64,000 bases of DNA, from the NCBI GenBank assembly GCA_963662545.2, contig CAXXLL010000002.1, forward strand, positions 608,001-672,000, in the 5' to 3' direction. Source of the stretch: Gammaproteobacteria bacterium (GTDB taxonomy: Bacteria; Pseudomonadota; Gammaproteobacteria; Ga0077536). The position numbers and the translations under genes were made by a program. Below the pieces are notes generated by a model, which ran no database searches, was not told where the DNA came from, and was given only the letters and a program-made list of their open reading frames with translations. Below, piece by piece: positions 3,989 to 57,789 of this stretch (its first letter is position 1; every line of letters starts with the position of its first letter).

Positions 3989-4110
3989 GTCGTTCCTCCG
4001 GAAAACTTCATCAACCATATGCGCATCCGGCTGGCGCGAAAAGGTGGCGCGCTTGCAGGGGGTCTGATCGCAGACGATCATGGCGGTCTCCCCATTGCCA
4101 GGAGCCACTC

Positions 4111-4965
4111 ATGGCCGCTACCATCATCGATTTTCGCGTGCGCCTGCCCATTGATCTCAGGCCGCCGCTGGAGGTGCCGCCCGCGGTCGCCGACCAATAC
4201 GATGCTGTTCTCGGGACTTCGACCTCATTCCAACGGACCTTAGCCGATCTGAAAGAGGAGATGGTGGAAAACGGCGTCGAGCATGCCATCGTCCACGCCG
4301 AATTCGAGTTCGGCGATCCGGCGGACGCCTTGAACGCCGCGGTAGCGCAACTGATCCAGGACGATTCTGAGCGTTTCAGCGGCATCGGCACGATCTCGGT
4401 GGAGCCGTTCGACATCATGCGGGCGCTAGGGCAAATGGCATTCTGCAAAGAAGCGGGCATGGTCGGGATCACCACTCAACCGTCGTTCTTCCACCTCGCA
4501 ATCAACGACCGGCGCCTCTATCCGATCTATGCCAAGGCGGTGGAACTCGATCTGATCACGTGTCTCCACACCGGCGTCAACTATGGCGTCACGCATCCTA
4601 TTCGGAATGATCACCCGCTGATGCTGGACGATGTCGCCTGTGATTTCCCGCAACTCACTTTGATCGCCTGTCACGCGGGCTGGCCCTGGACCGCGGAGAT
4701 GGTTGCGGTGGCACGCAAGCATCCCCGGGTGTACCTCGAATTCGGCGGCCTTGCGCCCAAATATGTCGGCGCTGCCGGGACGGGCTGGGAAGTCACGTAT
4801 CGATTCATGAACAGTGTCTTGGCTCGGCAGGTTTTATTCGGCACCGACTGGCCGGTGATCGCGCAAACTCGTGCGCTGTCGGAGTGGCGCGAGCTCGGCT
4901 TGAAACCGCGCGTGCTCGACAATTTACTCGGTGCGAATGCGGCGCGGTTGCTTGGGCGTAGCTAA
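4111..4965 (+). CDS. amidohydrolase family 2 protein
   Basis: IIDFRVR, YPIYAKAVELD..LHTG, HAGWPW and LFGTDWP motifs. Confidence 0.88.
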   Translation: MAATIIDFRVRLPIDLRPPLEVPPAVADQYDAVLGTSTSFQRTLADLKEEMVENGVEHAIVHAEFEFGDPADALNAAVAQLIQDDSERFSGIGTISVEPFDIMRALGQMAFCKEAGMVGITTQPSFFHLAINDRRLYPIYAKAVELDLITCLHTGVNYGVTHPIRNDHPLMLDDVACDFPQLTLIACHAGWPWTAEMVAVARKHPRVYLEFGGLAPKYVGAAGTGWEVTYRFMNSVLARQVLFGTDWPVIAQTRALSEWRELGLKPRVLDNLLGANAARLLGRS

Positions 4966-4976
4966 CGTCGCGATCG

Positions 4977-5110
4977 ATGATCGCTATGGGTCGATAGCCG
5001 CCTCCTCGCGGCAGCGCAGCACCTTTCCAAATCACGTCTGCAATGCGCTCATAAGCGGTCGACAAGTTCCCTGAAGCGTCGAGTCGAGAGGGTACGGCTG
5101 CAGTCGGCCA
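4977..5110 (+). repeat. tripartite palindromic repeat, copy R1 (third palindrome interrupted by element E1; resumes at 7607)
   Basis: GATCGCTATGGGTCGATAGCCGCC / ACGTCTGCAATGCGCTCATAAGCGGTC / GGCTGCAGTCGGCCA|TGAGCGGTC. Confidence 0.85.
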
Positions 5111-5246
5111 GGGGACGAAACCGCTATCGCGGTAGTGGTTAGCGAGGTCGTGGCGGAGTTGTAGTCAGTTCAGTTAGCAAGATGGGCCCTCCCTGTGTTG
5201 AGGTTGTTATCGCCAAACAACGACCAACAACACAGGAGACAAGCCC

Positions 5247-6131
5247 ATGACCCAGTCTAACAAAACCATCAGCCCGTTGTACGTCAACGCATGATCGACG
5301 ACATGACGTTGCGTCAGCTGCAGGAGAAAACGCAGACCGGATATCTGCGTTCCGTCAAACGCTTGACGAAGTTTCTGGGTCGCTCGCCGGATACGCGCGT
5401 CAGCCGAAGACCTGCGCGCGTTTCAAAAACAGTTGGTTGAACACGGCGCGTCGAGCGCGACCATCAATGCCACGATCCGCGGTCTACGGTTCTTCTTCGA
5501 GACCACCTTGGAACGCCCAGCGGCACTCAAACGGATGAGTCCGGTGCGGGTGCCGGAGCGCTTGCCGGTAGTCTTGAGCGTTGCAGACGTCACCCGCTTA
5601 CTAGACGCCGCGCCCAATCTGAAGTCGAAAGCCGCGCTGTCGGTGGCCTACGGTGCCGGCTTATGCGCCAGCGAAGTCTGCCACCTCAAAATCACCGACA
5701 TCGACAGTGAACGGATGATTATCCGGGTCGAGCAGGGTAAAGGTTCGCGCGACCGTCAAGCGATGCTCTCGCCCGCTTTGTTAGGTTTACTGCGCGCTTG
5801 GTGGCGCGACGGTCATCGCCGCGGCAAGATGCTCCCCAAGGGTTGGCTGTTCCCCGGCAGGGATCCCGTTGACCCGCTCTCACCTCGTCAACTCAATCGC
5901 ATGTGTCACTTCGCCGCGGCCACCGCCGAGTTGGATAAACAGATCTCCATGCACACCCTACGCCACAGTTTCGCGACGCACTTGCTCGAACAGCAGATCG
6001 ATATCCGGGTCATCCAGGTATTACTTGGCCACAAGAAGCTGACCACCACGGCGCGCTATGCCCATGTCGCAACGAAGGTGTTGAGCGACGTACAAAGTCC
6101 CCTCGACCGACTGAGCTTACCGACGCCGTAA
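5247..6131 (+). pseudogene. tyrosine recombinase, frameshifted
   Basis: Homologous to 19660-20541; +2 and +1 indels near 5280 and 5395; catalytic R changed to C (AGLCASE); [13 protein letters not shown] retained. Confidence 0.85.
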
Positions 6132-6132
6132 C

Positions 6133-7289
6133 GTGGCGCGGCCACCGCTCGAGGTGGCAGATATTTTTAGACGCGACGGCGCGACCTGGCGTCAAGCGCA
6201 TGCCGGTCATATCAGCCTCGGCCAACTCAAGGTCATGTCTGCCATCGAACACTGCCGCACCGAGGCGCTCGGCGGGCACCTGTTGCATTGCGAGCCGTGC
6301 GATGCAGAGCGTATTGCCTATAACTCGTGCAGGAACCGCCATTGTCCGAAATGTCAGGGACGTAAAGCAGCGCAATGGCTCGAACACCGTCAAGCAGAGC
6401 TGTTGCCGGTCGCGTATTACCATATCGTGTTCACCCTACCCGCACTGATCGCCGAGTTTGCCTATCAGAATAAAGCCGTGGTCTATGACCTGCTGCTTCA
6501 GAGGTGTCTGCTGCAACGCTCTCCACCATCGCCGCCGATCGCAAACACCTGGGCGCCCAGATCGCAATGACCTCGGTGTTGCATACCTGGGGCTCGGCAC
6601 TCACCCATCATCCGCATGTCCATTGCATCGTGCCCGGCGGCGGACTCGATGGCGAGACCTGGGTGCCGTGCAAACGGGGGTTCTTCCTGCCGGTACGGGT
6701 GTTGTCGCGACTGTTCCGGCGCTTGTTTCTGGAGCGGCTCCACCAGGCACACCGTGACGGGCAGCTACACTTCTGCGGTGACTTGGCGACTCTCGCCAAC
6801 CGCGCATCGTTCGACCAGTATCTGGCACCATTGGCGCAAACGGATTGGTTCGTCTACGTCAAACAACCCTTTGCCGGACCCCAAGCGGTGCTGGCTTATC
6901 TGTCGCGCTACACCCACCGCCTCGCCATCTCCAACCATCGGCTCATCGCCCATGATGCGCGTGGCGTCACCTTCCAATGGCAGGACTATCGCAGCAAACG
7001 CCGGGTGCGCTACCAACCCATGACGCTCGCCACCGATGAGTTCATCCGGCGCTTCCTGAACCACGTCTTACCCAGGGGCTTCCATCGCATCCGTCATTAC
7101 GGCTTGCTCGCCAATCCGGTGCGACGCGATAACCTGGCCCGCTTGCGCCGAGCACTCGATATGCACCACGAGCCCGACGTCGAAACACAACCAATTACGA
7201 CACCTTCGCCGACCTTCGTGTGTCGAACCTGTGGCGCGCCCTTACAGATCGTCGAGATCCTAAACCCGAGAACTCGGTCACCGCCATGA
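6133..7289 (+). pseudogene. IS91-family (Y2/HUH) transposase, frameshifted near 6500
   Basis: Zn finger SCRNRHCPKCQ in ORF 6133-6570; HPHVH, YLSRY and GFHRIRHYG in ORF 6504-7289. Confidence 0.88.
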
Positions 7290-7689
7290 CATCGGCTTCT
7301 ACTGACAACAATGACAGGCAGCACGCAGCGGTGTTGGCGATCTCTTATTGCCTCAGCCGTGGCAGACACCCGAACCGCGCGATCAAAACCAACCGATCAC
7401 TCGCTAAAACCGCTCTCAAAAGCATCGATAGCGCCGACATCGGACTTCGAATCGCCGCGCACCACCACACCGTCGACCCACTGCCCTAAACAATCCCCAT
7501 AGCCACGCCCCGCGGTTTCCTCCCCTGGGCGTTATCGAACACCCGCCTCAACGCTGTCGCAGAACCGCGCCCTTGTGCCGTTGCGGGTGTCCAATAACCC
7601 TAACCATGAGCGGTCATAAACATGAAGCGACGAGTTTCTACTCTCACTCCCCACATTCTGGATCGCTGAAACTTCCGACACATGAACGC

Positions 7690-14387: not shown

Positions 14388-15206
14388 ATGTTTCGGGATA
14401 GACTAGATAAGCCCCAACTCGAGAGCGTCGGAATTCTGGCCACGAAACGCACAAACAGCAGTCGCCTAGCGTCCCCGCTAGTATTGACGTCGATTATGTC
14501 CGCGTTGATTGCTGTCTTATTGTTCGACGGCGCATCAGCTGCCACCCTCGTTGACAAACCTTGGGACCCGACCGTTTCGCCGAACGGATGGCTTGCCAAC
14601 CAAAGTCAATTTGGAGGACCGAACTTAACGGCAGATCCTTTTGCGTTAGTTAATGGGGCGACGGTAACAAAGGTCGCGTGGTGGGGCTTTGGGACGCTAG
14701 GCGCCGAAGGGTTCGGTTTTTTCGGGACTGCAACTTGGGACGTTCGATTCTTCGAGATGCAGGAAGGCTCGCCGCCATTTCCCGCTGCCAACGCCCTTTA
14801 TATTTACGACACTGGCCTAATTAGCGGCGCTCTCGTTCAATTTAACCCAGGCGGTGGGGCACCCATCCTGCAAACGTTCAGGTGGGAGGTAGATATTCCT
14901 AGTGTTTTTTTGCCTTCGGGCGACTATGCGATTAGCTTGGCGATTACCGATCACAACGGCATCTGGAATTCCGCGACCGAAATCGACGACGTATTGTGGA
15001 CTCGCTTTTTTTTCGGAGATACGTGGCTAGGCCCCATTGATTTCGAAGGATCTGCCGGTCGCCGGGACAATGCGTTTGTTTTATACGGTATTTCTGTTCC
15101 AATCCCCGCGCCGCTCGGTCTTTTCCTATCCGGTCTAATAGGGGCTATGGGACTTGGTCACCGAAAGCGCATAGACGAACCCGGCAAGTACACCCGGGAA
15201 CAATAG
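14388..15206 (+). CDS. secreted protein with a PEP-CTERM/VPLPA-CTERM-like sorting signal (true start may be downstream)
   Basis: Signal-peptide-like segment ending ASAA; C-terminal VPIPAPLGLFLSGLIGAMGLGHRKR. Confidence 0.75.
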   Translation: MFRDRLDKPQLESVGILATKRTNSSRLASPLVLTSIMSALIAVLLFDGASAATLVDKPWDPTVSPNGWLANQSQFGGPNLTADPFALVNGATVTKVAWWGFGTLGAEGFGFFGTATWDVRFFEMQEGSPPFPAANALYIYDTGLISGALVQFNPGGGAPILQTFRWEVDIPSVFLPSGDYAISLAITDHNGIWNSATEIDDVLWTRFFFGDTWLGPIDFEGSAGRRDNAFVLYGISVPIPAPLGLFLSGLIGAMGLGHRKRIDEPGKYTREQ

Positions 15207-15239: not shown

Positions 15240-15538
15240 GATGTCTGTTCAGGGTCCAGACTGTGTGAAAACTCAATAATACGACGCCGAAAGTAAAAAA
15301 TTCCCCACCAGCATAGTAGTTAAGCACCATGAAAAGGGATCAGCACATCGCATTAATCCACTTCCGAGTGTCGGTTCCCCACTTTTGAAAAACGCAAATA
15401 GTTTTCACACAGTCTGGGTCGTTAGCCGCCGCCTCGCGGCAGTGCAGCACTGGTAATAGTTACGTCTGCAATCCCCTCGTAAGCGGTCGTCCTGTTGTTT
15501 TAAGTGTCGCGCTCCAAGCCCATTTCGGCTTTCGGCCA
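15240..15538 (+). repeat. tripartite repeat, copy R3 (MITE in first palindrome; E2+E3 in third; resumes at 21839)
   Basis: GATGTCTGTTCAGGGTC[MITE]GGTCGTTAGCCGCC / ACGTCTGCAATCCCCTCGTAAGCGGTC / TCGGCTTTCGGCCA|GGAGCGGTC. Confidence 0.85.
15257..15416. mobile_element. 160-bp IS1182-type MITE
   Basis: Perfect IRs CAGACTGTGTGAAAACT / AGTTTTCACACAGTCTG; 4-bp TSD GGTC. Confidence 0.88.
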
Positions 15539-16263
15539 GAGGACTAAACCGCTCGCGCGGTAGGGGGAGGTTTCACCAGGCGTTAGCGATGGATTGACGG
15601 GAAGGGTCTGTCCCGTGTTGATGTTGGTTTGCGACATGCAACTCAACACAAGGAACAGACCCATGACCCAGAACAAGCATTCTATCAGCCCGTTGCGTCA
15701 ACGCATGCACGACGACATGCGCCTTCGTAAGCTCTCTGAGAAAACACAGACAGCCTATATCCGTGCGGTCAAGAATTTCACCCGCTTTCTCGCCCGTTCT
15801 CCCGACACCGCCGGTAGCGAAGACCTGCGGCGTTATCAACTTCACATGGTCTCCACCGGCGTGTCTCGCACGACCATCAACGCCACCATCACCGGTTTGC
15901 ACTTTTTCTTTGAGATCTCCCTCGAGCGGCCCGATGCGATGAAACGGATGAGTACCGTGCACGTGGAACGTAAGCTCCCGGTGGTCTTGAGCGGTGAGGA
16001 AGTTGCGCGCCTGTTACAAGCCGCGCCCGGCATCAAGTACCAGGCGGCGTTGTCGCTCGCCTATGGCGCCGGCCTTCGCGCCGGCGAGGGAGTCATGCTG
16101 AAAGTCACCGATATTGACCGTGAGCGCAAGCTCCTGCGCGTCGAGCAGGGTAAGGGACGCAAGGACCGCTACGCTATGCTCTCACCGACCTTGCTCAAGG
16201 TGTTGCGCACCTGGTACCGCAGCGCTGCATCGCAGGGCAAGATGTGGCCCCACGGCTGGCTAG

Positions 16264-17649
16264 GAGTTATAACTGAATCTGGTGTTTGAGCGAATTGAAT
16301 AAAGGCGGCGTATCTGGTTGAAATGTTGTTACCAAGCAGCAAGCCAACCAAAGAGGATACGCCACCATGAGAGAGAGTAACGTTGTTGAATTATCAGGTC
16401 GAGAAGGAATACCAGATCCGTTGACGGAGGTTTTGAGAAACGGTGCACGGGCGCTGATTGAGCGAGCAGTTGAAAGCGAGCTGGCAGAGTATTTGGCGCA
16501 GTATTCAAGCCATCGCACGGCGGACGACAAAGCAGGTGTGGTTCGCAACGGCTATTTGCCGGAACGCCAGTTGCAGACGGGCTTGGGGACGGTCACGGTC
16601 AGGATACCGAAGGTTCGTTCGAAGCTCGGCGAGCCGGTGACCTTCCGTTCAGCGCTGGTGCCGCCGTATGTGCGCAAGACAAGAACCTTGGAGGCGGCCG
16701 TGCCGTGGCTGTATTTGAAGGGCGTTTCCAGTGGCGAAATGGGCGCTGCGCTGGAAGTTTTGTTGGGGCCGCAGGCGAAGGGCCTGTCGGCGAGCACAGT
16801 GTCGCGCTTGAAGCAGGTGTGGGCGCAAGAATACCGCGACTGGTGCGAGGGGCGATTGGACCAAGACCGCTGGGTGTAGGTGTGGGCGGACGGTGTCTAC
16901 AGTGGCCTGCGGGCGGAGCACACGAAGCTGTGTGCGTTGGTGGTGATCGGCGTCAATGAGCGAGGCGAGAAGCGTTTTTTGGCGATGGAGGATGGTGTGC
17001 GGGAGTCCACGCAGAGCTGGCGCGAGGTGTTGCTGAAATTGAAGTCACGCGGGATGAATATTCCCAAGCTGGCGATCGGGGACGGTGCCATGGGCTTCTG
17101 GGCCGCACTGGAGGAAGTCTACGGTGAGACCCGCCAGCAACGCTGCTGGATGCACAAGACGATGAACGTGCTGAACTGCCTACCGAAGTCAGCACAGGCC
17201 AAAGCCAAGCAAGCCCTGCACGCGATCTGGCAGGCCGCGACAAAGGCCGACGCCGAGAAGGCGTTCGAGCTGTTCCTCAAGACCTATGAACCGAAGTATC
17301 CCAAGGCGACCCTGTGCCTACAGAAAGACCGTGAGGAGTTGCTGGCGTTCTATGATTTTCCGGCACCACATTGGCAAAGCATTCGCACGAGCAATCCGAT
17401 TGAATCCACCTTCGCTACGATCCGGCACCGGACCCGGCGCTCCAAGGGCGGTCTCTCTCGGGACGGCATGCTCCATATGATGTTCAAGCTGGGGCGGTGT
17501 GCGCAGAAGAATTGGCGACGCCTACGTGGATTCGACTACCTGGCCAAGGTGATTACTGGAGTTAAATTTGAAGATGGTATCGAGGTGACAAGGGTCAATC
17601 AGGTCGCCGCTTGATTCAACCGCCTGAACACCACTTTTGACAATAACTC
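16264..17649 (+). mobile_element. IS256-family element, copy 1
   Basis: IRs GAGTTATAACTGAATCTGGTG / CACCACTTTTGACAATAACTC; 9-bp TSD CGGCTGGCT (two extra bases on the left). Confidence 0.92.
16367..17614 (+). pseudogene. IS256 transposase with an in-frame TAG at 16877-16879
   Basis: RNGYLPER, RWV*VWADG, IGDGAMG, QRCWMHK and RTSNPIES motifs. Confidence 0.88.
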
Positions 17650-17963
17650 CGGCTGGCTGTTCCCGGGGCAGAACCCCGTCAACCCTCTGACCACCCGCCA
17701 GCTCAACCGGGCCTGTCATGCGGCGGTGGACCTAGCGACCATCGATAAGCGCGTGTCGCTGCATACGCTGCGCCATTCATTCGCAACTCATTTACTCGAG
17801 CAGGGGGTCGACATCCGTGTGATCCAGGTGCTGCTCGGACACCAGAAGCTCGAGACCACCGCGCTGTACTCCCAGGTCGCCATGCGCACGCTTCGTGAGG
17901 TCGTGAGCCCACTGGAACATCTCACCCTGGAGTTGAGACCGCCCGCCTGACCCGGCGGGTGAG

Positions 17964-19157
17964 GTGTCTCGGCAACCGCTCGAGGTCGCGGATATCTTCC
18001 GCGCCTACGGTCCGGCTTGGCGTCATGCGCACGCCGGACACCTCAGTCTCGGGCAGCTGAAGGTCATGTCGGCCATCGAGCGCTGTCGTAGCGCAGCGCT
18101 CGGCGGCCACGTTGTGCACTGCGACGCCTGTGACCACATCGAGATCGCCTACAACTCCTGCCGTAACAGGCACTGCCCGAAGTGCCAGGGCGCAGTGGCC
18201 AGGCAATGGCTTGCCGCGCGCGAAGCCGAGCTGCTACCGGTCGCGTACTTCCACGTCGTGTTCACGGTGCCGGCAGAGATCGGCAACCTCGCCTATCAGA
18301 ACAAGGCCGTTATCTACAACCTCTTATTCAAAGCCGCCGCCGAGACCTTGCTCACCATCGGGGCCGATCCCAAACACCTCGGGGCACGCCTGGGGCTCAC
18401 CGCCGTGCTGCATACCTGGGGCTCGGCCATGACCCATCATCCCCATCTGCACTGCATCGTGCCTGGCGGCGGGCTCTCGCTCGACGGCGTGCGTTGGCTC
18501 GCCTGTCGGCCCAACTTCTTCTTACCGGTGCGGGTGCTCTCGCGGTTGTTCCGACGCCTGTTCCTCGGCCAGCTGGGTGAACTCCACGCGGGCGGACAGT
18601 TGGCCTTCTTCGGCCAATACCAGGGACTCGAAGACCCGCACGCCTTCGCCGAGTTCCTCACTGCGTTGCGTAAACGCGAGTGGGTCGTTGATGCCCGCCC
18701 GCCCTTCGCCGGACCCGCCGCGGTGCTCGAATACCTCGCCCGATATACCCACCGCGTCGCCATCGCTAACTCGCGTCTCATCACCTTCGACCAACAACGC
18801 GTGAGCTTCAAGTGGAAGGACTATCGCGCCCAGCAGGAGAACCGCTACAAGACCCTGTCGCTCGAGACCGGCGAGTTCATCCGCCGCTTCCTCATCCACG
18901 TCCTACCCCACGGCTTCCATCGCATTCGCCATTACGGGTTGTTCGCAAACGGCGGGCGCACCGAGAACCTCGCAAAGGTCCGCGCTCTGCTCGGCATCGA
19001 GACATCCCAAGATGTCAACGACAACGACAACACTGATGAGGCGACACCCGACTGGCTACGCTGTCCGTCCTGTGGAGGTGCGATGCACATCATCGACACC
19101 TTCGAGCCCGGTCACGCGCCCTGTGCACCACCGCACCGCGGAGGCGACCCACCTTGA
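17964..19157 (+). CDS. IS91-family (Y2/HUH) transposase, intact
   Basis: 397 aa; SCRNRHCPKCQ, HPHLH, YLARY, GFHRIRHYG and C-terminal CPSCG. Confidence 0.93.
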   Translation: MSRQPLEVADIFRAYGPAWRHAHAGHLSLGQLKVMSAIERCRSAALGGHVVHCDACDHIEIAYNSCRNRHCPKCQGAVARQWLAAREAELLPVAYFHVVFTVPAEIGNLAYQNKAVIYNLLFKAAAETLLTIGADPKHLGARLGLTAVLHTWGSAMTHHPHLHCIVPGGGLSLDGVRWLACRPNFFLPVRVLSRLFRRLFLGQLGELHAGGQLAFFGQYQGLEDPHAFAEFLTALRKREWVVDARPPFAGPAAVLEYLARYTHRVAIANSRLITFDQQRVSFKWKDYRAQQENRYKTLSLETGEFIRRFLIHVLPHGFHRIRHYGLFANGGRTENLAKVRALLGIETSQDVNDNDNTDEATPDWLRCPSCGGAMHIIDTFEPGHAPCAPPHRGGDPP

Positions 19158-19659
19158 CCCTCGACCGTTCGAACTCGCCAGCCCACCAGCCCACAAATCG
19201 CCGCTTTACCACCGGCAACGTTACCGTCTTGCTTGGCGCCGTGACGAGACCACATAGCGGTACCGATCCCGCTCCTCAACGTCCGGTCACCCACCCACCT
19301 CATTGCACGCTGACCCGTTCTTGCCCGACACACCGCTTGCCGTTGGCTACCGATCATATCAATCCGAACAACGCCACCCTCAAATCCCCATAGCACCGTG
19401 CCGACCAACGCGCCGGCGTTCTTCTCCCGCGGTTTCCTCCCTTGAGGCTTGTCAGACGCCTGCCCCCACCCTCTCGACCCAGTCCGTCCACTGTCTACGG
19501 CAGGCATCTGACAACCCTTAACAGAGGACGAAACCGCTATCGCGGTAATGGTCGGCGAGGTTGTGGCGGAGGTGTTGTAAATTGAGTTAGCAAAATGGGC
19601 TCACCCTGTGTTGAGGTTGTTATCGCCAAACAGCAACCAGAAACACAGGAGATAAGCCC

Positions 19660-20541
19660 ATGACCCAGTCTAACAATTCCATCAGCCCGTTGCGTCAACG
19701 CATGATTGATGACATGACCTTGCGTCAGCTCCAGGAGAAAACGCAGAGCGGCTATCTGCGCTCGGTGAAGCGCTTGACGAAGTTTCTGGGTCGTTCACCC
19801 GATTCGGCGTCAGCCGAAGACCTGCGCGCGTTTCAAAAACATCTGGTGGACCAGGGGGTATCGAGCGCGACCATCAATGCGACGATCCGCGGACTGCGGT
19901 TCTTCTTCGAGACCACCCTGGAGCGCCCGCAGGTACTGAAACGGATGAGTCCGGTGCGTGTGCCGGAGCGCTTGCCGGTGGTCTTGAGCGTGGCAGACAT
20001 CACCCGCTTATTGAACGCTGCCCCCGATCTGAAGTCGATGGCGGCGCTGTCGGTGGCCGATGGTGCCGGGTTACGCGCCAGCGAAGTCTGCCACTTGAAG
20101 ATCACCGACATCGACAGCGAACGGATGCTTATCCGAGTGCAACTCGGCAAAGGTGCTCGAGATCGACAAGCGATGCTCTCGCCGGCCTTGTTGCAACTAC
20201 TGCGCGCCTGGTGGCGCGAGGGTCATCGCCGCGGCAAGATGCTCCCCAATGGCTGGCTGTTCCCCGGCGTTGACCCGGTCGACCCCCTCTCGACACGCCA
20301 ACTCAATCGAATGTGTCATTTCGCTGCGGCGACGGCCGCGCTGGAGAAACGGCTCTCCATGCACACCTTACGCCACAGCTTCGCGACACATTTGCTCGAG
20401 CAGCGGGTCGATATCCGGGTCATCCAAGTCTTACTCGGCCATAAGAAGCTGACCACCACCGCACGCTACGCCCATGTCGCGACCCAGACCTTGAGTCAAG
20501 TACAAAGTCCTCTGGACCGGTTGAAGTTACCCAAGCCGTAG
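19660..20541 (+). CDS. tyrosine recombinase (XerD-like, N-terminal SAM-like domain; no IntI-specific insertion)
   Basis: 293 aa; GLRASE (R), GKGARDR (K), HTLRH, LLGH and TTARY catalytic residues. Confidence 0.92.
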   Translation: MTQSNNSISPLRQRMIDDMTLRQLQEKTQSGYLRSVKRLTKFLGRSPDSASAEDLRAFQKHLVDQGVSSATINATIRGLRFFFETTLERPQVLKRMSPVRVPERLPVVLSVADITRLLNAAPDLKSMAALSVADGAGLRASEVCHLKITDIDSERMLIRVQLGKGARDRQAMLSPALLQLLRAWWREGHRRGKMLPNGWLFPGVDPVDPLSTRQLNRMCHFAAATAALEKRLSMHTLRHSFATHLLEQRVDIRVIQVLLGHKKLTTTARYAHVATQTLSQVQSPLDRLKLPKP

Positions 20542-20542
20542 C

Positions 20543-21521
20543 GTGGCGCGGCCACCGCTAGAGGTGGCAGACATTTTCAGACGCGACGGCCAGACCTGGC
20601 GTCAGGCGCACGCCGGACATATCAGCCTGGCTCAACTCAAGGTCGCGTATTACCACGTCGTGTTCACCTTACCGGCACTGATCGCCGATCTCGCTTACCA
20701 GAATAAGGCCGTGGTCTATGATTTGCTGTTCAAGGTCTCTGCGGAAACACTCGCCACCATCGCCGCCGATCGCAAACACCTGGGTGCCCAGATCGGAATG
20801 ACCTCGGTGTTGCATACCTGGGGCTCGGCACTCACCCATCATCCGCAGGTCCACTGCATCGTCCCCGGGGGCGGACTCGATGGCGAGACCTGGGTGCCGT
20901 GTAAACGCGGGTTTTTCCTGCCGGTACGGGTGTTGTCGCGACTGTTCCGGCGTCTGTTCCTACAACGGCTCCACCAGGCACACCGTGACGGGCAGCTACG
21001 TTTCTTCGGTGACCTGGTGCATCTCGCCAACCCGACATCGTTCAACCGATACCTGGCGCCACTGGCGTAAACGGAGTGGTTCGTCTACGTCAAACAACCC
21101 TTTGCCGGGCCCCCAAGCGGTGCTCGCTTACCTGTCGCGCTACACCCACCGGGTTGCCATCTCCAATCATCGGCTCATCGCCCATGATGAACGCGGCGTC
21201 ACCTTCCAATGGAAGGACTATCGCACCAAACATTGTGTCCGATACAAACCCATGACGCTCGTCACCGATGAGTTCATCCGCCGCTTCTTGACCCACGTCT
21301 TACCCAAGGGGTTCCATCGCATCCGTCATTACGGCTTGTTCGCTAATCCCGTGCGACGCGATAACTTGACCCGCTTACGTCGAGCACTCGACACCCACGA
21401 CGAGCCCGACGTCGAAACAGAAACGATGACGGCGTCTTCACCGGCGTTCGTCTGTCGAATCTGTGGGGCGCCCTTGCAGATTGTCGAGATCCTCACCCCG
21501 AACATGAGAGCACCACCATGA
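20543..21521 (+). pseudogene. IS91-family transposase with an in-frame deletion, a TAA stop and a frameshift
   Basis: Compared with E1: Zn-finger region missing at 20644; CAA changed to TAA at 21068; +1 near 21110. Confidence 0.88.
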
Positions 21522-22131
21522 CGCCGGCTCCTACGACAAGCATGACCGGCAGCACGCAACAGCGTCGGCGAGCGCCTATTGCCTCAACTGTGTCAAACAC
21601 TCGAGCCGCCCCTTCAAAAGCCAACGACTACGCTAGAAAACGGCGCTCCCACCCATCGATGACGCCAGCATCCGACTCGAAAACGCCGCACACAACGACT
21701 TCTACGACCCGCTGCCCCCAACAATCCCCATAGCCACGCCCCCGCGGTTTCCTCCCCTGGGCGTTATCGAACACCCGCCTCACTGCCGTCACAGACCCTC
21801 ACCCTCGTGCCGTTGCGGGTGTCCAATAACCCTAACCAGGAGCGGTCTTGGTATTTGTCGTAAGGCCATGCAGCGTGAAGGCTTCGTGTTCCGGGCGGGG
21901 TCCCATGGCGATGCAGTCGTTGACGGAGCTGTCGAGGACCTGTGCGAGGCCATCGTCGTCGTGCGGTTCGAGGGCGAGATAGGTAGTATCCAGAGCGCGA
22001 ACCAACAGACCTGCACGTTCGAGGTGCTACCCCACCCGTTCGCTCAGGGTAAGCACGCGAAAAAGAACTCCACGAACTCGCGCACGCAATTCTCTGAGCG
22101 AAAAAGTGGTTTGCCTCTGGAATCAGACGTT

Positions 22132-27148: not shown

Positions 27149-27954
27149 GGGATGGGGGCGACCGAGGATGAGGCTTCCCGTATCAGAGAAGCTTGAGATC
27201 ATCCGTTTGGTTGAGCGGTCGCATCTGTCGGTTGGGCGGACGCTGGCGACGTTGGGTATATCAAGACCGACGTTCTATCGTTGGGTGGCACGGTATCAGC
27301 GGCTCGGGGAGTCGGGTCTCGAAGACCGGCGCTGGGGCCCGCACCGGGTGTGGAACCGTATCCCTGAGACGGTTGGCCAGCAGGTGATTGAGCTGGCTCT
27401 GGATCAGCCTGAGTTGAGTTCACGCGAGTTGGCGGTGACGTTCACCGACGCGCGCGGCTATTTCATCTCGGAAGCCAGTGTTTACCGGCTGTTAAAGGCC
27501 CAAGACCTGATTGAGACACCGGCCTTCCGGGTGATGGCGGCGGCCGATGAGTTCAAGGATAAGACCACCGCCCCGAACCAGCTGTGGCAGACCGACTTTA
27601 CCTATCTGAAGGTCATCGGCTGGGGCTGGTTCTACCGGTCGACCATCCTCGATGACTTCTCGCGTTATGTCATCGCCTGGAAACTGTGCACGACGATGAA
27701 AGCCAGTGACGTCACCGCGACGCTTGAGCAGGCGCTCGCCGCCGCGGGACTCGATTCAGCCACTGTCAAACATCGACCGCGGCTACTCTCGGACAACGGC
27801 TCGAGTTACATCGCGGGGGAACTGGCAGACTGGCTTGACGACCACGGCATGGGCCTCGTCCGCGGTGTGTAACCGGTCAATCCAGGCCGTTATTCACGGT
27901 CTCGGGCAGATGGTTTAGTTTGCCAGGTTTCCCAGTCAATCGGGAGCTTGGTAA

Positions 27955-28631: not shown

Positions 28632-30215
28632 ATGAATGGGGGTTATGCAACGCCGGAAATATCACTTGATGCGGCGGTGTTACAAGCGGAAAACACAGCC
28701 CTCAAAACGCAGGTCGCCACACTCACCCAACAACTCGACTGGTTCAAACGCCAACTGTTCGGTCGCAAGTCTGAACGGCGGCTGATTGATCCCAATCCCG
28801 ATCAACGGTTACTCAATGGCTTCGAGGATGAGTCGTCATCGACGGCGGCGGTTGAGAAAGAAACGATCACTTATCAGCGGCGCAAAGGAAAGCGCCGTGG
28901 CGATGATTGTGTGACTGATCAAGGGTTACGTTTCGATGACTCGGTGCCGATTGAATGCATCCAATTGTCGGTACCTGAAGATGTCGCGGATGCGTTTGAA
29001 GCGAGCAGTGAAAAGATCACCTATCGTTTAGCGCAACGGCCGGCGGCCTATGTGGTCTTGAAGTACATCCAACCGGTAGTGAAGCGCAAAAGCGACGGTC
29101 AGATCTTCACGATCCCGGCGCCCGATGGTCTGTGGTCCGGCTCATTGGCGGATGTGAGTGTGGTTGCGGGGATGCTGGTTGATAAGTTCGCTTATCACCT
29201 GCCGCTGTACCGTCAACATCAACGAATGGGGCTGAACGGCATTACCGTGGCGCGGTCGAGTCTGACGCACTGGGTGCAGAAGGCAAGTGACCTGTTGAAG
29301 CCGATTTATCTGGCGCAGTTGCGGCATATCTTGTTATCGAAGACGCTGGCGATGGATGAAACGCCGATTAAGGCGGGTCGCTCGGGCAAGGGCAAGATGA
29401 ACGCGGCGTGGTATTGGCCAATTTATGGCGAAGCGGATGAGATTGCGTTCACGTTTGCGCGAACCAAGGCGCGGTCGCACATCGACAAAACGTTGGTGGA
29501 CTTTAAAGGCACCTTACTAACCGATGGCGCCGCGGCTTATGCGCGTTTTGCCGCCGATCGCGGCGATGAAGTCGTGCATGCGCAATGCTGGGCGCACACG
29601 CGTCGTCAGTTCGAAAGGGCATTATCCGATAGGCCACAAAGTGCGGCGCAGGCACTTGATTTGATCGCGGCACTGTATGCCGTTGAGGCCACCATCCGTG
29701 ACCAGGCAATGGATGAAGCGGCGACCCAGACCTACCGCAGCCGGTACGCCTTGCCTGCGGTTGATGCATTTTTTGCCTGGCTTGACGAGCAACGCCAGTG
29801 CATGGGTTTATTACCGAGTCAGCCGTTTACGAAGGCGCTGGCCTATGCAGCCGAGCGTGAGGGCGCGTTACGTGTTTACTTATCGGATGCGAGCGTCGCG
29901 ATCGACACGAATCATTTAGAGCGCGCTCTGAGACCCATTCCGATGGGCCGAAAGAATTGGATGTTCTGTTGGACTGAGGTGGGCGCTGAACACGTTGGGA
30001 TCATACAAAGTTTGATCTGTACTTGCCGAATACACGGCATTAATCCGTACACCTACCTGGTTGATGTACTCCAGAGGATCGCGATCCATCCGGATAGCGC
30101 AGTGGAACAACTCACGCCTCGGGTGTGGAAGACATTGTTCGCTACCCAACCGCTGCGTTCTAACTTGGCCGTCGTTACCGCAACACGAGATCAATTACCA
30201 GACGCCGCCGTTTGA
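28632..30215 (+). CDS. tnpC: IS66 DDE transposase TnpC
   Basis: HLPLYRQ, MDETP, CWAHTRR and DTNHLERALR motifs. Confidence 0.93.
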   Translation: MNGGYATPEISLDAAVLQAENTALKTQVATLTQQLDWFKRQLFGRKSERRLIDPNPDQRLLNGFEDESSSTAAVEKETITYQRRKGKRRGDDCVTDQGLRFDDSVPIECIQLSVPEDVADAFEASSEKITYRLAQRPAAYVVLKYIQPVVKRKSDGQIFTIPAPDGLWSGSLADVSVVAGMLVDKFAYHLPLYRQHQRMGLNGITVARSSLTHWVQKASDLLKPIYLAQLRHILLSKTLAMDETPIKAGRSGKGKMNAAWYWPIYGEADEIAFTFARTKARSHIDKTLVDFKGTLLTDGAAAYARFAADRGDEVVHAQCWAHTRRQFERALSDRPQSAAQALDLIAALYAVEATIRDQAMDEAATQTYRSRYALPAVDAFFAWLDEQRQCMGLLPSQPFTKALAYAAEREGALRVYLSDASVAIDTNHLERALRPIPMGRKNWMFCWTEVGAEHVGIIQSLICTCRIHGINPYTYLVDVLQRIAIHPDSAVEQLTPRVWKTLFATQPLRSNLAVVTATRDQLPDAAV

Positions 30216-48107: not shown

Positions 48108-50931
48108 TCATACCCCCATCGCCGCGATTAAAGCGCCCGCCCCCTTGATTTGGAGAACGCGCTTCAGGTTATAAGCCAGCACGTGCAGACTCATCTCCGT
48201 ACTCACCCGTGGCAGCGTCTTCGTTAAGAAGTGCGTCGCTCCCATCCAGGCTTTCAGCGTCCCGAAGGGATGCTCGACCGTTTGTCGACGCAGTTGCATC
48301 TTCTCCGGAGCCGCGTGCAGTCGTGCCTGCATCTCGTCGAGCACATCTTCACGCTCCCAGCGTTTGACCCGACGCTCGAGACCGGTCGTACACTTCGCCT
48401 TGATCGGACAGTCCTTGCACGCCGTCGTCCAATAGACATTTAGCGTCAGCCCCTTCTCAATGCTGACGCAGCGCCATGTCAACGCTTCTCCCGCCGGGCA
48501 CCGGTATTGATCCTGCTCTGGCTCGTAGACAAAGTCTTGTTTGCCATACCGTCCTTTCTTCTTGCTTGGTGAAGTCAATGGCTTGGGCACGTAGGTGCGT
48601 ATCCCTTCATCCTCGCACGCCACGACCTCGGTTCCCGTGTAGTAACCCCGGTCACTCACCACCTCGAGATCGTCATGTCCGGTTGCGTCACGCGCCTGCT
48701 CGGCTATCGTCGCCAGATGCGCGCGGTCGCTACCCACGTTTGTCACCTCGTGCGCCACTATCAGATGGTTCTTGGACTCTACCGCCGCCTGCACGTTGTA
48801 GCCCACTATCCCGGTGCCCCGGGTCTTCATCGCGCGCGAATCCGGATCGCTCAGCGAGAGCTGCTGGTCTGGCTCAGCCAACCTGCGCTGCTCTAATGCC
48901 TTCAGACGCGACATCTCCTCTTCGAGCTGCTTCAGCTTGGCTTGTAAACCACTCACCTTCGCCTCCGGCATCGACGGTTGCGCTTGGTCGGCCTCATCCA
49001 ACTCAGCCAGGTAACGCGCTATATGCCGCTCAAGGCGCGCTTGACGCGCCTTCATCTTCGACTCAGTGAAGTTCTTGTCCCGTGAGTTCACCGCTTTGAA
49101 CTTGCTGCCGTCTATCGCCACCAGCGCTTGGCTGAACAGCTTGAGACGACGGCATACACCAATAAACTCACGGCACACCCCGACGATGCCTTTGCCGTTG
49201 TCCTTGCGGAAGTTGGCTATCGTCTTGTGGTCAGGCATCAGCCGACGCGTCAACCACATCACTTCGACGTTGCGTTGCGTCTCGCGCTCCAATCGCCGGC
49301 TCGACTGGAGGCGATTGAGGTAGCCGTAGATATACAGCTTCAACAGCGTCGCAGGGTCATAGGCCGGCCGGCCCAGCGCGCGAGGCTGATGACGCTCGAA
49401 GCCCAGGCCTTTCAGATCGAGTGCCTCGACAAACGCCTCAATCACCCTGATAGCGTTGTCTTCTGTGATGTAGTCGTCGAGTCGTTCCGGGAATAGTGTG
49501 CTCTGGGTTCGGTCTTCGCCTTCAACGAATCGCGTCAGAGTTATTGTCAAAAGTGGTGTTCAGGCGGTTGAATCAAGCGGCGACCTGATTGACCCTTGTC
49601 ACCTCGATACCATCTTCAAATTTAACTCCAGTAATCACCTTGGCCAGGTAGTCGAATCCACGTAGGCGTCGCCAATTCTTCTGCGCACACCGCCCCAGCT
49701 TGAACATCATATGGAGCATGCCGTCCCGAGAGAGACCGCCCTTGGAGCGCCGGGTCCGGTGCCGGATCGTAGCGAAGGTGGATTCAATCGGATTGCTCGT
49801 GCGAATGCTTTGCCAATGTGGTGCCGGAAAATCATAGAACGCCAGCAACTCCTCACGGTCTTTCTGTAGGCACAGGGTCGCCTTGGGATACTTCGGTTCA
49901 TAGGTCTTGAGGAACAGCTCGAACGCCTTCTCGGCGTCGGCCTTTGTCGCGGCCTGCCAGATCGCGTGCAGGGCTTGCTTGGCTTTGGCCTGTGCCGACT
50001 TCGGTAGGCAGTTCAGCACGTTCATCGTCTTGTGCATCCAGCAGCGTTGCTGGCGGGTCTCACCGTAGACTTCCTCCAGTGCGGCCCAGAAGCCCATGGC
50101 ACCGTCCCCGATCGCCAGCTTGGGAATATTCATCCCGCGTGACTTCAATTTCAGCAACACCTCGCGCCAGCTCTGCGTGGACTCCCGCACACCATCCTCC
50201 ATCGCCAAAAAACGCTTCTCGCCTCGCTCATTGACGCCGATCACCACCAACGCACACAGCTTCGTGTGCTCCGCCCGCAGGCCACTGTAGACACCGTCCG
50301 CCCACACCTACACCCAGCGGTCTTGGTCCAATCGCCCCTCGCACCAGTCGCGGTATTCTTGCGCCCACACCTGCTTCAAGCGCGACACGGTGCTCGCCGA
50401 CAGGCCCTTCGCCTGCGGCCCCAACAAAACTTCCAGCGCAGCGCCCATTTCGCCACTGGAAACGCCCTTCAAATACAGCCACGGCACGGCCGCCTCCAAG
50501 GTTCTTGTCTTGCGCACATACGGCGGCACCAGCGCTGAACGGAAGGTCACCGGCTCGCCGAGCTTCGAACGAACCTTCGGGATCCTCACCGTCACCGGCC
50601 CCAAGCCCGTCTGCAACTGGCGTTCCGGCAAATAGCCGTTGCGAACCACACCTGCTTTGTCGTCCACCGTGCGATGTCCTGAATACTGCGCCATATATTC
50701 TGCCAGCTCGATTTCAACCGCTCGTTCAATCAGAGCACGAGCACCGTTTCTCAAGACCTCCGTCAACGGATCTGGTATTCCTTCTCGACCTGATAATTCA
50801 ACAACGTTACTCTCTCATGGTGGCGTATCCTCTTTGGTTGGCTTGCTGCTTGGTAACAACATTTCAACCAGATACGCCGCCTTTATTCAATTCGCTCAAA
50901 CACCAGATTCAGTTATAACTCATCGCGTCAT
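48108..50931 (-). pseudogene. IS1182 transposase, separated from its ATG (50931) by IS256
   Basis: GRPAYDP, SSRRLERE, AIDGSKFKA, GYNVQ, DRGY and VEHPFG motifs; body 48108-49537 is uninterrupted. Confidence 0.88.
49538..50921 (-). mobile_element. IS256-family element, copy 2 (transposase has the same TAG plus a 2-bp deletion near its start)
   Basis: Near-identical to 16264-17649; 9-bp TSD ATCGCGTCA. Confidence 0.93.
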
Positions 50932-51580: not shown

Positions 51581-52965
51581 GGGTCTACGCGGATTCATGT
51601 GGGTAAATTCTGAATTAGACCAAGTGTAAACCATTGAAATCATGTAGACATTCAGAGATTTCGTATGGGGTGAAAGTGGTTTCATTTTGTGGGTAGGCTA
51701 AGGCCATGAAGAATCCCAAGTCGATCCGAGCGCTGTTTGCGTTCCCTAGTTTTACCGCCGCATCGAAATTGGTGGGCATGTTTGGTGATCGGTATGCCCG
51801 TGTGATCCAACTCAAGAGGCGAAAAAAACAGCGATCTGTTCTCACTGTGCTCACCGGTGCCGCGGGCGTTACGACAAGAAGGTGCTGCGAGTACGAGACC
51901 TGTCAGTTGCCGGATGGCGAATCTACCTGGAGTTCGAACGCTGGCGTGTCAGTTGCCGGAGGTGCGGCGGCGTGCAGGTAGAACATCTTGACTGGCTGGC
52001 AAAGAACCCTCGCTATACGCAGCGCTTTGCCATGCAGGTGGGCAAGCTGTGCCGGGACATGCCGAACCAGGCTGTCGCCGAGAGGGAACGCCTGCACCAC
52101 AGCACGGTGAAAGACCTCGATAAGCTGTACATGCAAAAGCAGGTTGAGCTGGCGGGCATGCCAGCACCCCGGGCCATCGGTATTGATGAGATCTCCATCC
52201 GCAAAGGACATAACTACCGGGTCATCGTCAGTGACCTGGATCGGGGGCGTCCTATCTGGGTCGGTGGTGAAGGTCGCAAAGAGGCTGACATCGACCTGTT
52301 TTTCCAGGCATTGGGCGAGAACAAGAGCGCTCGCATCGAACTGGCGGCGATGGACATGTGGAAGCCGTTCCGTAACTCGGTCATGAACAACGCACCGCAG
52401 GCGCGGATCATCTATGACAAGTTCCATATCATGCGCCACCTCTCAAAGGCTCTCGATGAAGTCCGGCGCCGTGAATACAAACGTCTCCGCGGCAAGGACA
52501 GGAGTTACATCAAAGGCCAGCGATATACCTTGCTCTCGCGACGCGAGAACCTGAATCTGGATGGCAGACGAGCCCTGAAAAAACTGCTCCAGGCCAACCG
52601 GCGTCTGAACACCGCCTACGTCCTCAAGGAAACCTTCGGCCAACTCTGGGACTACCGTACCGAGCGCGGCGCGCGTGCCTTTTTCGAGCGCTGGAAGGAC
52701 AGTCTGAAATGGCAGCGATTGGCGCCGTATCGCAAGTTTGCTGAGCTGATTGAATCCCATTGGGATGGCATTGCTTCCTATTGTGATGCTAAGAATAAAG
52801 TCAGTCTTGGATTGGTCGAAGGGGTCAACAACAAAATCCGGGTCCTGCAACGACGCGCCTATGGCTATCGTGATGAGGAATTCCTCAAACTGAAAATCAT
52901 TGCGGCATTTCTTCCGCCACTACCCAGAAATGCCAATATCAACCCACACGTTTCCGCGTAGACCC
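51581..52965 (+). mobile_element. ISL3-family element
   Basis: IRs GGGTCTACGCGGA / TCCGCGTAGACCC; 8-bp TSD AATTAAGT. Confidence 0.93.
51706..52961 (+). CDS. ISL3 transposase, probably read through a -1 frameshift at an A7 run (~51822)
   Basis: IGIDE, AMDMW, YDKFH and EGVNNKI..RRAYG motifs; N-terminus lies in another frame. Confidence 0.85.
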
Positions 52966-53118: not shown

Positions 53119-53427
53119 AATGTCGCCTTGGGGTCGTCAGCAGCCTGATTGGGGCGGTGCAGCACCTTTCAGCAACACGTCTGCTGTCCCCTCGTAAGCG
53201 GTCATTAAGTAGCGTTCGACGACGCGACTATGACGGACGGCGGCTCTCGGCCGAGGCTGTGTCAAAAGTATTTTCGAATTTTGAAAGTGGGAGAAGTTTA
53301 GCCCGATTCGTCTACCTTAGGCGGTGCGTTCCCTTAATCAATCGTGCATAACAACCTAAGTGGGGAAAATTTTCACGGCGGGCTCCATTTTTCGACTTTT
53401 GACACAGCCTCGGCCATTTGCAGACGT
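53119..53427 (+). repeat. tripartite repeat, copy R9 (MITE in third palindrome)
   Basis: AATGTCGCCTTGGGGTCGTCAGCAGCC / ACGTCTGCTGTCCCCTCGTAAGCGGTC / GGCGGCTCTCGGCC[MITE]GGCCATTTGCAGAC. Confidence 0.85.
53253..53411. mobile_element. 159-bp IS1182-type MITE (inverted relative to the other three)
   Basis: IRs GAGGCTGTGTCAAAAGT / ACTTTTGACACAGCCTC, almost identical to the IS1182 ends; TSD GGCC. Confidence 0.9.
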
Positions 53428-53463
53428 CGATCGATTTCGGATTCTGTTATTTGAGTGTCCTCT

Positions 53464-53715
53464 TTAGCGATGTATCTGGAACATGTTCTGAGTACAGTGC
53501 CAGTAAGTCTCGATATCGAACACGCGCTTGAGGCGTTGCGCCCATGTCATAGCGGTGCGGCGCTGGGCGGGCGTCTTGTCTTCGGTGCGATCGCGCGGTG
53601 GCCGTCCCCGCCCGGCCGGCGTGACGGCGGCACGATGGGCGCTGTTGGGGGCGAACACGCCGTGGAAGCGCGTCAGGTTGACCCGGGGCTTGGGCACCAG
53701 GGCGACCAGGCGCAA
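53464..53715 (-). pseudogene. ISCR-type IS91 transposase fragment
   Basis: LVPKPRVNLTRFHGVFAPNS...MTWAQRLKRVF. Confidence 0.8.
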
Positions 53716-53726
53716 GCGGCGACGGC

Positions 53727-54020
53727 TTGCACGATAGTCTCGACACCTTGCGTGCGGGCGGCCGTTATGTTTTCTTCGGCGCGACGCGGGGCAACGCCGA
53801 GAAGGGCGTTAACATGGCCAAGCTCTTTTTTCGCCAAATCCGGATCCAGGGTACGACGATGGGCCGGCCACAGGAATTTAAGGACATGGTCGATTTTGTC
53901 AATTTGCACGGTATCGAACCCGTTATCGACGAGGTCGTCCCATTCGAACAGGCGGTCGCCGCCCATCAGCGCCTGCTGGATGCCGAACAGATGGGCAAGA
54001 TAGTCCTCGAGATTGCATGA
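53727..54020 (+). pseudogene. C-terminal fragment of a zinc-binding dehydrogenase / quinone oxidoreductase
   Basis: GGRYVFFGAT...IQGTTMG...PVID...GKIVL; N-terminus absent. Confidence 0.75.
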
Positions 54021-57750: not shown

Positions 57751-57789
57751 TCACATTCGTACAGACCAAGTTCGTCAATCGTCGATGGG

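Follow-up and report, generated by a model that had tools for sequence, protein, structure and literature searches.

A subgroup of IS91-family insertion sequences with a predicted integron-integrase-like recombinase inserts at one edge of the centre of a 24-bp palindrome

The window analysed here is a 64,000-nt stretch of a gammaproteobacterial genome (G000:C2:608001-672000; coordinates on contigs C2 and C3 refer to this source genome). It contains three copies, E1, E2 and E3, of an insertion sequence (IS) of ~2.5 kb, which belongs to a subgroup of the IS91 family with two DNA-breaking enzymes in one operon. The upstream gene encodes a tyrosine recombinase of the IntI/Xer-like kind and the downstream gene an HUH-Y2 (IS91) transposase. 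Across 51 insertions in this and other genomes, the target had the consensus GNCNGCT-NN-SGGYCX|NN-AGCNGNC, a 24-bp near-palindrome that was always entered after X and in one orientation. The homology of element end and target was confined to C-X at one edge of the 6-bp centre. The element represents a widespread, already annotated and mechanistically undescribed IS91-family subgroup. The literature searched yielded no account of this subgroup's ends, target or mechanism, or of what its recombinase does; ISfinder and TnPedia, which may list IS91 members with an integrase, were not covered. The defined ends, the 24-bp target and the matching rule appear to be new.

E1 (5111-7606, plus strand, 2496 bp) is a decayed copy of the element. 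It adjoins the 3' end of the repeat R1 (4982-5110, plus strand), which comprises a 5' palindromic site (site A), a conserved module of ~75 nt, a linker of ~40 nt, and the left arm and centre of a second palindromic site (site C). R1 ends in GGCTGCAGT-CGGCCA, the left arm and centre of site C, with X being A5110. E1 is flanked by ...CGGCTGCAGTCGGCCA on the left and TGAGCGGTC on the right. Its left junction reads ...GGCTGCAGTCGGCCA(5110)|GGGGACGAAACC(5111...) and its right junction ...CCCTAACCA(7606)|TGAGCGGTC(7607...). These are the junctions quoted in an earlier note on this DNA, which had placed the element at 5095-7616; the refined boundaries lie slightly inside those limits. The right part of the split R1 target follows at 7607-7615 (plus strand) as NN and the right arm, TG-AGCGGTC. 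The left end of E1 (5111-5135, plus strand) is NN-GGACGAAACCGC-TATC-GCGGTAG and includes a conserved hairpin or palindrome of ACCGC (5120-5124) and GCGGT (5129-5133). The right end (7577-7606, plus strand) is ...GTGTCCAATAACCCTAACC-A, the last base X being A. Terminal inverted repeats were absent, as the note had observed: the two ends of E1 matched ungapped at 11 of 40 positions, and the longest local match was 7 nt. Between the ends lie a frameshifted tyrosine recombinase pseudogene (5247-6131, plus strand), the intact homologue of which has 293 amino acids with Phage_integrase and SAM-like N domains, and a frameshifted IS91-family Y2 transposase pseudogene (6133-7289, plus strand; frames 6133-6570 and 6504-7289).

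The same window contains an unoccupied site C in the repeat copy R11 (57612-57749, plus strand), in which GGCTGCAGT-CGGCCA|CA-AGCGGCC is uninterrupted; positions 57726-57749 read GGCTGCAGTCGGCCA|CAAGCGGCC. R11 had been put forward as the match to an E1-free R1, including the linker upstream, and the alignment bore this out, with agreement at 45/48 positions directly before the junction and at 108/129 overall. R11 is a paralogous empty site rather than the orthologous pre-insertion allele. An orthologous empty site was not obtained from the same-genus genomes: in one of these, the amidohydrolase gene (G049:C13:352980-353910, corresponding to window 4051-4980) is present without R1 after it, and synteny is rearranged. 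The DNA downstream of this gene matched C2:~1.12-1.15 Mb in reverse, indicating a large rearrangement bordering the R array. The right half-site of R11 is followed, after ~35 nt, by the start of a decayed minus-strand gene for an IS91-type transposase that has no accompanying integrase.

The junctions also confirmed that a tandem of E2 and E3 occupies the same position in a further repeat copy, R3 (15410-15538, plus strand), which ends in ...CGGCTTT-CGGCCA. Site A of R3 is interrupted by a 166-bp miniature inverted-repeat transposable element (MITE; 15255-15420). E2 (15539-19523, plus strand) starts after ...CGGCTTTCGGCCA of R3 and belongs to a second lineage, that of the intact copies E5 and E6 described below. 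Its integrase gene is interrupted by an IS256/Mutator-family IS (16262-17650, plus strand; 8-bp duplication GGCTGGCT), and its transposase open reading frame (ORF; 17964-19157) is intact. E3 (19524-21838, plus strand) directly adjoins the last base of E2, and GGAGCGGTC comes after it; the right part of the R3 target, at 21839-21847 (plus strand), is GG-AGCGGTC. The recombinase frame of E3 (19660-20541) is open but has Asp at position Tyr134, which is Tyr in 33/33 homologues. The E3 transposase has an in-frame 177-bp deletion that takes the zinc-finger region, and a TAA stop at 21068. Considering the frameshifts in E1, the interruption in E2 and these lesions in E3, all three copies in the window are defective. 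E2 and E3 belong to diverged lineages (65-75% identity), hence the tandem is not a read-through dimer. In an Arenicellales genome (G004:C1:~3052400-3057200; loci L094 and L099), one element lies inside the 5' part of another copy's recombinase gene (...CGTCA|AGCGCATG), which yields a tandem comparable to E2/E3.

BLAST searches of the source genome retrieved three additional copies, E4, E5 and E6. E4 (C2:1616787-1619277) was 98% identical to E1 with both genes intact; the two differ by 43 mismatches and seven 1-bp indels. E5 (C3:6821-9408) and E6, two intact copies of the E2 lineage, have identical sequences of 2588 bp. The left flank of E4, E5 and E6 is ...GACGGCTTACGGCCA and their right flank NN-AGC(G/C)G(A)(C/T), which form part of a second repeat type, S, located after a paralogous gene. 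All six copies in the genome were preceded either by CGGCT-nn-CGGCCA or by the right end of another copy, and their orientation relative to R or S was the same in 6/6. At several places S is unoccupied and ends in ...CGGCCA|AT AGCG..., |AC TCCGGAC or |AC TGCGGAC. When scanned for the left-end motif with up to two substitutions, the genome yielded the six elements and two element-free places; no solo end or miniature derivative was seen.

Relatives were collected by scanning one genome per species with an alignment of three recombinases, which gave 594 pattern matches, 426 of them confirmed; locus counts out of 80 refer to the best 80 of these 426. The hosts of these 80 included Variovorax, Caballeronia, Paraburkholderia, Massilia, Methylobacter, Thauera, Acidithiobacillus and many metagenome-assembled genomes, among them one labelled Verrucomicrobia and one labelled Gemmatimonadota. 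A Y2 transposase gene was located directly downstream of the recombinase gene in 79/80 loci; the exception is a contig of 1065 bp, too short to accommodate it. The left-end motif GGAC(T/G)AAACCGC-N3-6-GCGGT (at most two substitutions) was present in 73/80 loci, and locus L047 keeps the palindrome by the compensatory variant GCCGC...GCGGC. Right ends, GGCAGGcaTCgnACAACCCT(T)AAC-X, were found ~2.55 kb from the left end. The fixed ends of the element are thus NN-GGAC(T/G)AAACCGC-tnnc-GCGGTAG ... GGCAGGcaTCgnACAACCCT(T)AAC-X. Four contigs of 2547-2560 bp each correspond to exactly one element. One Massilia genome had 11 transposase matches, and identical element copies occurred in several genomes. 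A fused recombinase-transposase ORF in Massilia (a 723-amino-acid frame) was considered and rejected, since the transposase frame merely stays open across a separate recombinase gene.

In a plasmid collection, 399 records contained the gene pair, annotated as 'IS91 family transposase | site-specific integrase'. Together with the many genomic loci, these records indicate that elements of this kind are common and already annotated. A passage of a survey (PMC9208149) counts 245 'IS91 - XerD' couples across 15 phyla, and part of a study of Shewanella (PMC9229058) describes an IS91-like element adjoining an attC site. Among the 23 public sequencing runs listed, 20 contained the intact element or part of it and 17 at least half of its words; none of the runs listed as containing it was an RNA run. 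Contigs of four public runs on the E5 locus ended at the element boundaries, and neither an empty-site joint nor a circle joint (right end to left end) was present among 15 of 39 joints, which weighs neither for nor against a circle.

To define the target, we required each locus to show a left end, a right end that could be recognised 2.2-2.9 kb further downstream, and no less than 25 nt of flank; identical flank pairs were removed. Loci with short flanks or without a recognisable right end were left out. This resulted in 51 non-redundant insertions, 46 foreign and five from the source genome (E2/E3 counted as one site). Counting from the joint, the left flank had G in 45 of the 51 at -15, C in 47 at -13, G in 39 at -11, C in 29 at -10 and T in 33 at -9; in the centre, G occurred in 34 at -5 and in 42 at -4, C or T in 30 and 12 at -3, and C in all 51 at -2. 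In the right flank, A was found in 34 at +3, G in 42 at +4, C in 44 at +5, G in 47 at +7 and C in 44 at +9. The site thus consists of a 9-bp arm, a 6-bp centre and a second 9-bp arm, the arms being mirror images; insertion takes place where the centre meets the right arm. The centre itself is nearly palindromic (CGGCCG, GGGCCC). The alignment of flanks of recombinase and Y2 homologues, proposed in the earlier note as a check, therefore returned a shared GGCCA/GGTCG-type palindrome and not unrelated flanks. Chance does not account for the note's observation, since all six copies of the source genome and 46 independent foreign insertions replicate the site geometry; the observation is real, and strongly so.

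The shared flanks could in principle reflect a longer mobile unit (R or S together with E) or the duplication of whole segments, without any targeting by the element. E4, E5 and E6 do have ~110 nt of left flank in common, which is the S repeat, and parts of C2 and C3 are duplicated. Against this, S and R occur without E at many places, where unoccupied sites end in ...CGGCCA|NN(A/T)(G/C)C.G.., the right flanks of all copies diverge past the 9-nt half-site, and E1 and E2 are in R, not in S. The same site geometry also occurs beside unrelated flanks in the 46 insertions in other taxa. The unoccupied S copies and the foreign insertions contradict this explanation, which we regard as very improbable.

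Two inverted half-sites, a 6-8 bp centre and exchange at the edge of the centre define a core-type site, and this architecture was found in the 51 sites. At the variable arm positions, pairing was not above the permutation expectation (16/47 vs 14.6 and 10/47 vs 12.2 expected). This lack of covariation suggests that the half-site pair is read on duplex DNA, by a dimer, and not as a hairpin. The target therefore looks like a duplex tyrosine-recombinase core site, to which the recombinase would bind. In the source genome, the strict motif was matched 10 times compared with 0.17 expected, always within R (nine times in site A at the 5' end, once in site C at the 3' end). Five other host genomes together had one match to the strict motif, and their counts at up to two mismatches equalled those of a reversed-pattern control, that is, there was no enrichment. 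In other genomes the element evidently locates good sites although they are rare; in the source genome, R and S provide plenty of them.

X was identical to the last base of the element in 41/51 insertions; the permutation mean was 18.1, and none of 10,000 permutations reached 41. The second N gave a weaker signal (25/51 vs 16.6, p = 0.007). With C at -2 invariant in the target and X matched well above expectation, the minimal homology that had been proposed for one edge of the core was upheld and narrowed to C-X. Methylobacter sequences located the joint. The element ends in A at three loci (L056, L069 and L072). G occupies X in the left flanks of L056 and L069, as it does in three copies of the same ~105-nt host repeat that carry no element. 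Consequently, the X in the flank is native, the X of the element is its own, and the joint lies after X. A target duplication of one or three bases was rejected, because X differs between the junctions in Methylobacter and NN is equal in only 13/51 insertions. No repeat is seen in unoccupied copies either. The NN after the left joint travels with the element (AA in 5/5 Arenicellales copies and in 4/6 Massilia copies), and the NN after the right joint varies by site. The element is thus NN-GGAC...AAC-X, placed between the X and the NN of the target. The rule for X also explains the orientation: at CGGCCA, X is A on the top strand, which matches the element, and G on the bottom strand. No position of the element covaried with X as a 'guide' base beyond a lineage-level signal; the strongest mutual information, 0.87, was that of the flank base itself, and other values (at most 0.50) fell in variable stretches.

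The two proteins were compared with family models. The recombinase matched Phage_integrase and SAM-like N in Pfam, and the transposase Y2_Tnp (PF04986) and Zn_Tnp_IS91 (PF14319). The transposase scored 423 bits against NCBIfam NF033538, 'IS91 family transposase' (cut-off 125). The best models for the recombinase were archaeal XerA and IntI, followed by XerD and XerC, all below their cut-offs. The IntI model TIGR02249 was matched at positions 3-178 and 238-315 only (187 and 174 bits, cut-off 265), leaving the IntI-specific insert (~179-237) unmatched. By these profiles, the recombinase is classified as IntI-like. A passage of 10.1101/542381 likewise groups 'TRs found in IS91' (TRs, tyrosine recombinases) with integron integrases and describes them as lacking the IntI insertion. 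Among 33 homologues of the recombinase, the catalytic residues R-K-H-R-H-Y do not vary or hardly do so (at least 90%). The HxH, YxxxY and zinc-finger Cys residues of the transposase are conserved to the same degree in 33 homologues. Both enzymes look active in the intact copies.

We consider the odds about even that the labour is divided between the two enzymes, with the HUH transposase copying the element out and the recombinase pasting it in at one edge of the core. The Y2 transposase would copy the element out as a circle, probably single-stranded, with the junction ...TTAAC-X-NN-GGAC.... A recombinase dimer would bind both 9-bp arms of the duplex target and exchange a single pair of strands at the border between the 6-bp centre and the right arm, where only C-X would have to match, and replication would complete the insertion. 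Pasting by the recombinase is favoured by the target, which is built like a textbook tyrosine-recombinase core site, and by a joint that falls where its 6-bp centre ends. On the bottom strand, the matched bases (X' G) immediately follow the nick on its 3' side, and it is bases in this position that tyrosine recombinases must re-pair once the strands have been swapped.

Several points weigh against this division of labour. The joined element ends, an attP-like junction, are unlike the target arms. A simple recombinase reaction between two identical cores is therefore not supported, and on the element the recombinase would need to recognise another sequence or structure than in the target. Furthermore, C-X, the matched pair of bases, is located on the 5' side of the top-strand joint, which is where nick sites are recognised by HUH nucleases, and the left-end hairpin is 9 nt from the joint, as is typical of HUH substrates. 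The match at X is broken in 10/51 insertions. Classical IS91 transposes without a recombinase. The attribution derives from sequence, on which cutting by the HUH transposase is also plausible. A structure-based test of transposase and recombinase binding (33-row alignments) gave a score of 0.00 and weighs neither way.

Some of these points fit a scheme in which all strand transfers are performed by the Y2 transposase, with nicks placed after C-X in the target, the left junction and the right end, much as IS91 nicks at its tetranucleotide. The recombinase would then be an accessory, resolving tandem or multimeric rolling-circle products, for example, or regulating the element. We hold this to be possible, at well under even odds. 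The transposase is a full member of the IS91 family with HUH and both Tyr residues conserved. Target duplication and terminal inverted repeats are absent and insertion is orientation-specific, as part of PMC10288648 states for HUH transposons. The location of C-X and the conserved left-end hairpin with its one compensatory variant agree with this scheme, as do the tandem copies here and in the Arenicellales genome. The source genome also contains an intact IS91-type gene without integrase, with a different downstream sequence that is not delimited as an element end. However, the symmetric 24-bp target with two half-sites, conserved on both sides of the joint, far exceeds a nick-site motif. The variable arm positions carry no pairing signal, so the target is no hairpin substrate, and no 'guide' base in the element covaries with X. 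The recombinase is kept in 79/80 loci with its catalytic residues, a stronger conservation than expected of a dispensable accessory, and the E2/E3 tandem joins two diverged lineages and is not a read-through dimer.

Conversely, the recombinase might both excise the element, by recombining the left with the right junction, and integrate it, the Y2 enzyme replicating the circle or being a co-travelling remnant. The core-site-like geometry of the target agrees with such an integrative element, and minimal homology is known to suffice for recombination by the IntI-like family. A passage of 10.1101/542381 places the recombinases of IS91 elements in an integron-like subgroup. We nevertheless judge this unlikely: every complete copy retains an intact and conserved Y2 gene, the element junctions share only C-X, the joined ends form no second palindrome, no directionality factor was found within the 2.5 kb, and copy numbers are IS-like, with the 11 transposase matches in one Massilia genome and the identical copies in several genomes.

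The interpretation given in the earlier note was partly supported. It had proposed a crossover by the tyrosine recombinase. The joint at a single edge and the IntI-like recombinase fit this; that the recombinase and not HUH-Y2 is the cutter is only about as likely as not, as neither enzyme has lost its catalytic residues and the junctions would be explained just as well by an HUH nick after C-X. Integration as a single strand, in the manner of integrons or CTX phages, is no more than an analogy here: the extra domain of IntI is absent, the arms show no covariation, and the target is not hairpin-like. The contrast drawn with the tetranucleotide insertion of IS91 was justified, considering the strict specificity for site and orientation and the absence of a duplication.

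Like IS91, IS801 and IS1294, the element has a homologous transposase (zinc-binding and HUH-Y2), no terminal inverted repeats, no target duplication and orientation-specific insertion. It differs from these classical members by a second, upstream recombinase gene in 79/80 loci, where a single transposase gene suffices for the IS91 family. Its target is the 24-bp palindrome and not a tetranucleotide (GTTC/CTTG type) at the ori end, the flanking rule given for the IS91 family in part of PMC10288648. The terminal sequence of the element, ...ACAACCCTTAACA, also differs from the ...GGTTTATGCTATCTATACAC downstream of the genome's integrase-less IS91-type gene, which is not delimited as an end. That intact gene is located at C3:~2499000-2500550 on the minus strand. 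Decayed IS91-type transposase fragments without integrase (C-terminal ...MTWAQRLKRVF...) lie next to several R copies in the window, at 57702-58463 (minus strand), 60784-61467, 62247-62652 and ~53409-54003.

Among integron systems, the likeness lies in IntI being, with archaeal XerA, among the best-scoring families for the recombinase, and in a crossover at one fixed edge with 2-3 matched bases. The right end, ...CCT(T)AAC, resembles the RYYYAAC box of integrons. In contrast to IntI, the recombinase has no IntI-specific insert and scored below the TIGR02249 cut-off. The target, unlike integron sites, is of a symmetric duplex type without RYYYAAC/GTTRRRY boxes or a hairpin, and the recombinase rides on the mobile unit and not on a fixed platform. 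By analogy, the element resembles CTX-type phages and IMEX that integrate at dif, with a circular, possibly single-stranded element, a Xer-like recombinase and a short palindromic core site. In those systems, one strand pair is exchanged and replication finishes the process. The target of the element appears not to be dif-like. In the present case, the recombinase is encoded by the element itself, an IS that also brings an HUH enzyme; integration of the CTX/IMEX type by Xer is mentioned in part of PMC9345347. As for palindrome-specific ISs (IS1397/ISKpn1 and some IS110-family members), a host family of palindromic repeats provides a safe landing site. IS1397/ISKpn1 and the IS110 family use DDE or DEDD transposases, and to our knowledge none of these palindrome-specific ISs carries a pair of HUH and tyrosine recombinase enzymes.

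IS91-type elements and the related ISCR elements are important in gene mobilisation, and their mechanism is among the least understood of bacterial transposons. The subgroup with an IntI-like recombinase is large, judging by the 399 plasmid records and the 426 confirmed relatives among genome contigs. The exact ends, target consensus, joint position and one-base rule allow direct genetic and biochemical tests of what the IS91-associated recombinase does. Should this enzyme do the pasting, the element would follow a two-enzyme pathway of HUH copy-out and tyrosine-recombinase paste-in, and a near relative of the integron integrase would be working on ordinary duplex DNA.

The host repeat R occurs in ~112 copies of ~130-150 nt across the source genome, in co-oriented arrays, and each copy is bounded at its start and end by a copy of the 24-bp palindrome. 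The largest cluster comprises 38 merged BLAST hits, all on the plus strand, from C2:612982 to C2:749003. Other clusters are located at C2:1620414-1641030, C2:2548840-2588140, C3:11965-16157, C3:354937-379301, C3:887258-930748 and C3:2543672-2566737. In the window, R copies start at 4982, 8383, 15410, 23412, 25074, 25986, 47790, 53125, 55990, 57612 and 62661. The R units separate blocks of 1-8 kb of unrelated genes in either orientation. E1, E4 and E5 are located at or just ahead of the first R of an array, and E2/E3 at the third. R is genus-specific, being present in 2/2 same-genus genomes and in 0/18 other genomes searched. Together, the genus-specific R and S supply the palindrome in more than 100 copies, at which the element piles up. 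An Rfam scan of the window at gathering thresholds had no matches, indicating that R is not a known RNA family. Folded as single-stranded DNA, R was no better than its shuffles (z -0.81 to +1.32), and consensus RNA folding of 76 copies (alifold), based on a poor alignment, revealed no structure. Upstream of E5, a tRNA-Ser(tga) gene (C3:5883-5972; 2884-2973 of locus L126) lies ~850 nt away and downstream of serS; it is followed by the S repeat, E5 and the R array, as in a tRNA-linked island.

The R arrays may themselves be products of the element's IntI-like recombinase acting on the bounding 24-bp core-type sites, although we think this quite improbable. The ~112 R units, the clusters of up to ~40 units over 136 kb, and the elements at or near the upstream end of four arrays would be in line with this idea. 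If it were true, the arrays would be a second, integron-independent system of module shuffling, with the recombinase carried on a rolling-circle IS and with duplex palindromes, not folded attC, as sites. R as a classical attC or cassette array without integrase was rejected, because the attC sites of the resident integron (CCTAAC...GTTAGG) are unlike R. The genome encodes two true integron integrases (462 and 461 bits, cut-off 265). The first integron (C2:~985000-997664) has ~11 classical attC sites of ~122 nt, spaced 400-2700 bp on the same strand upstream of the integrase. For the second integrase (C3:1527239-1528180), no attC array was seen in 19 kb upstream.

The 166-bp MITE in R3, which has inverted ends CAGRCTGTGTGAAAAC, was found at 19 further places in the genome. 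In 20/20 near-full-length copies it was inserted at the exact centre of the 24-bp palindrome with duplication of the central 4 bp (GGTC, GGCC, GACC); a second, unrelated element thus targets the same site. Between 26000 and 53000, the window is dense in other insertion sequences, namely rve/IS481-like (27168-27872), IS66 (28632-30215), DDE_Tnp_1 (48108-49550) and ISL3 (51882-52961) elements. A second copy of the Mutator-family transposase that interrupts E2 lies at 49573-50307. The ORF at 14388-15206 (272 amino acids) had no Pfam match; by eye, its C-terminus (...PIPAPLGLFLSGLIGAMGLGHRKR...) looks like a PEP-CTERM-type sorting signal.

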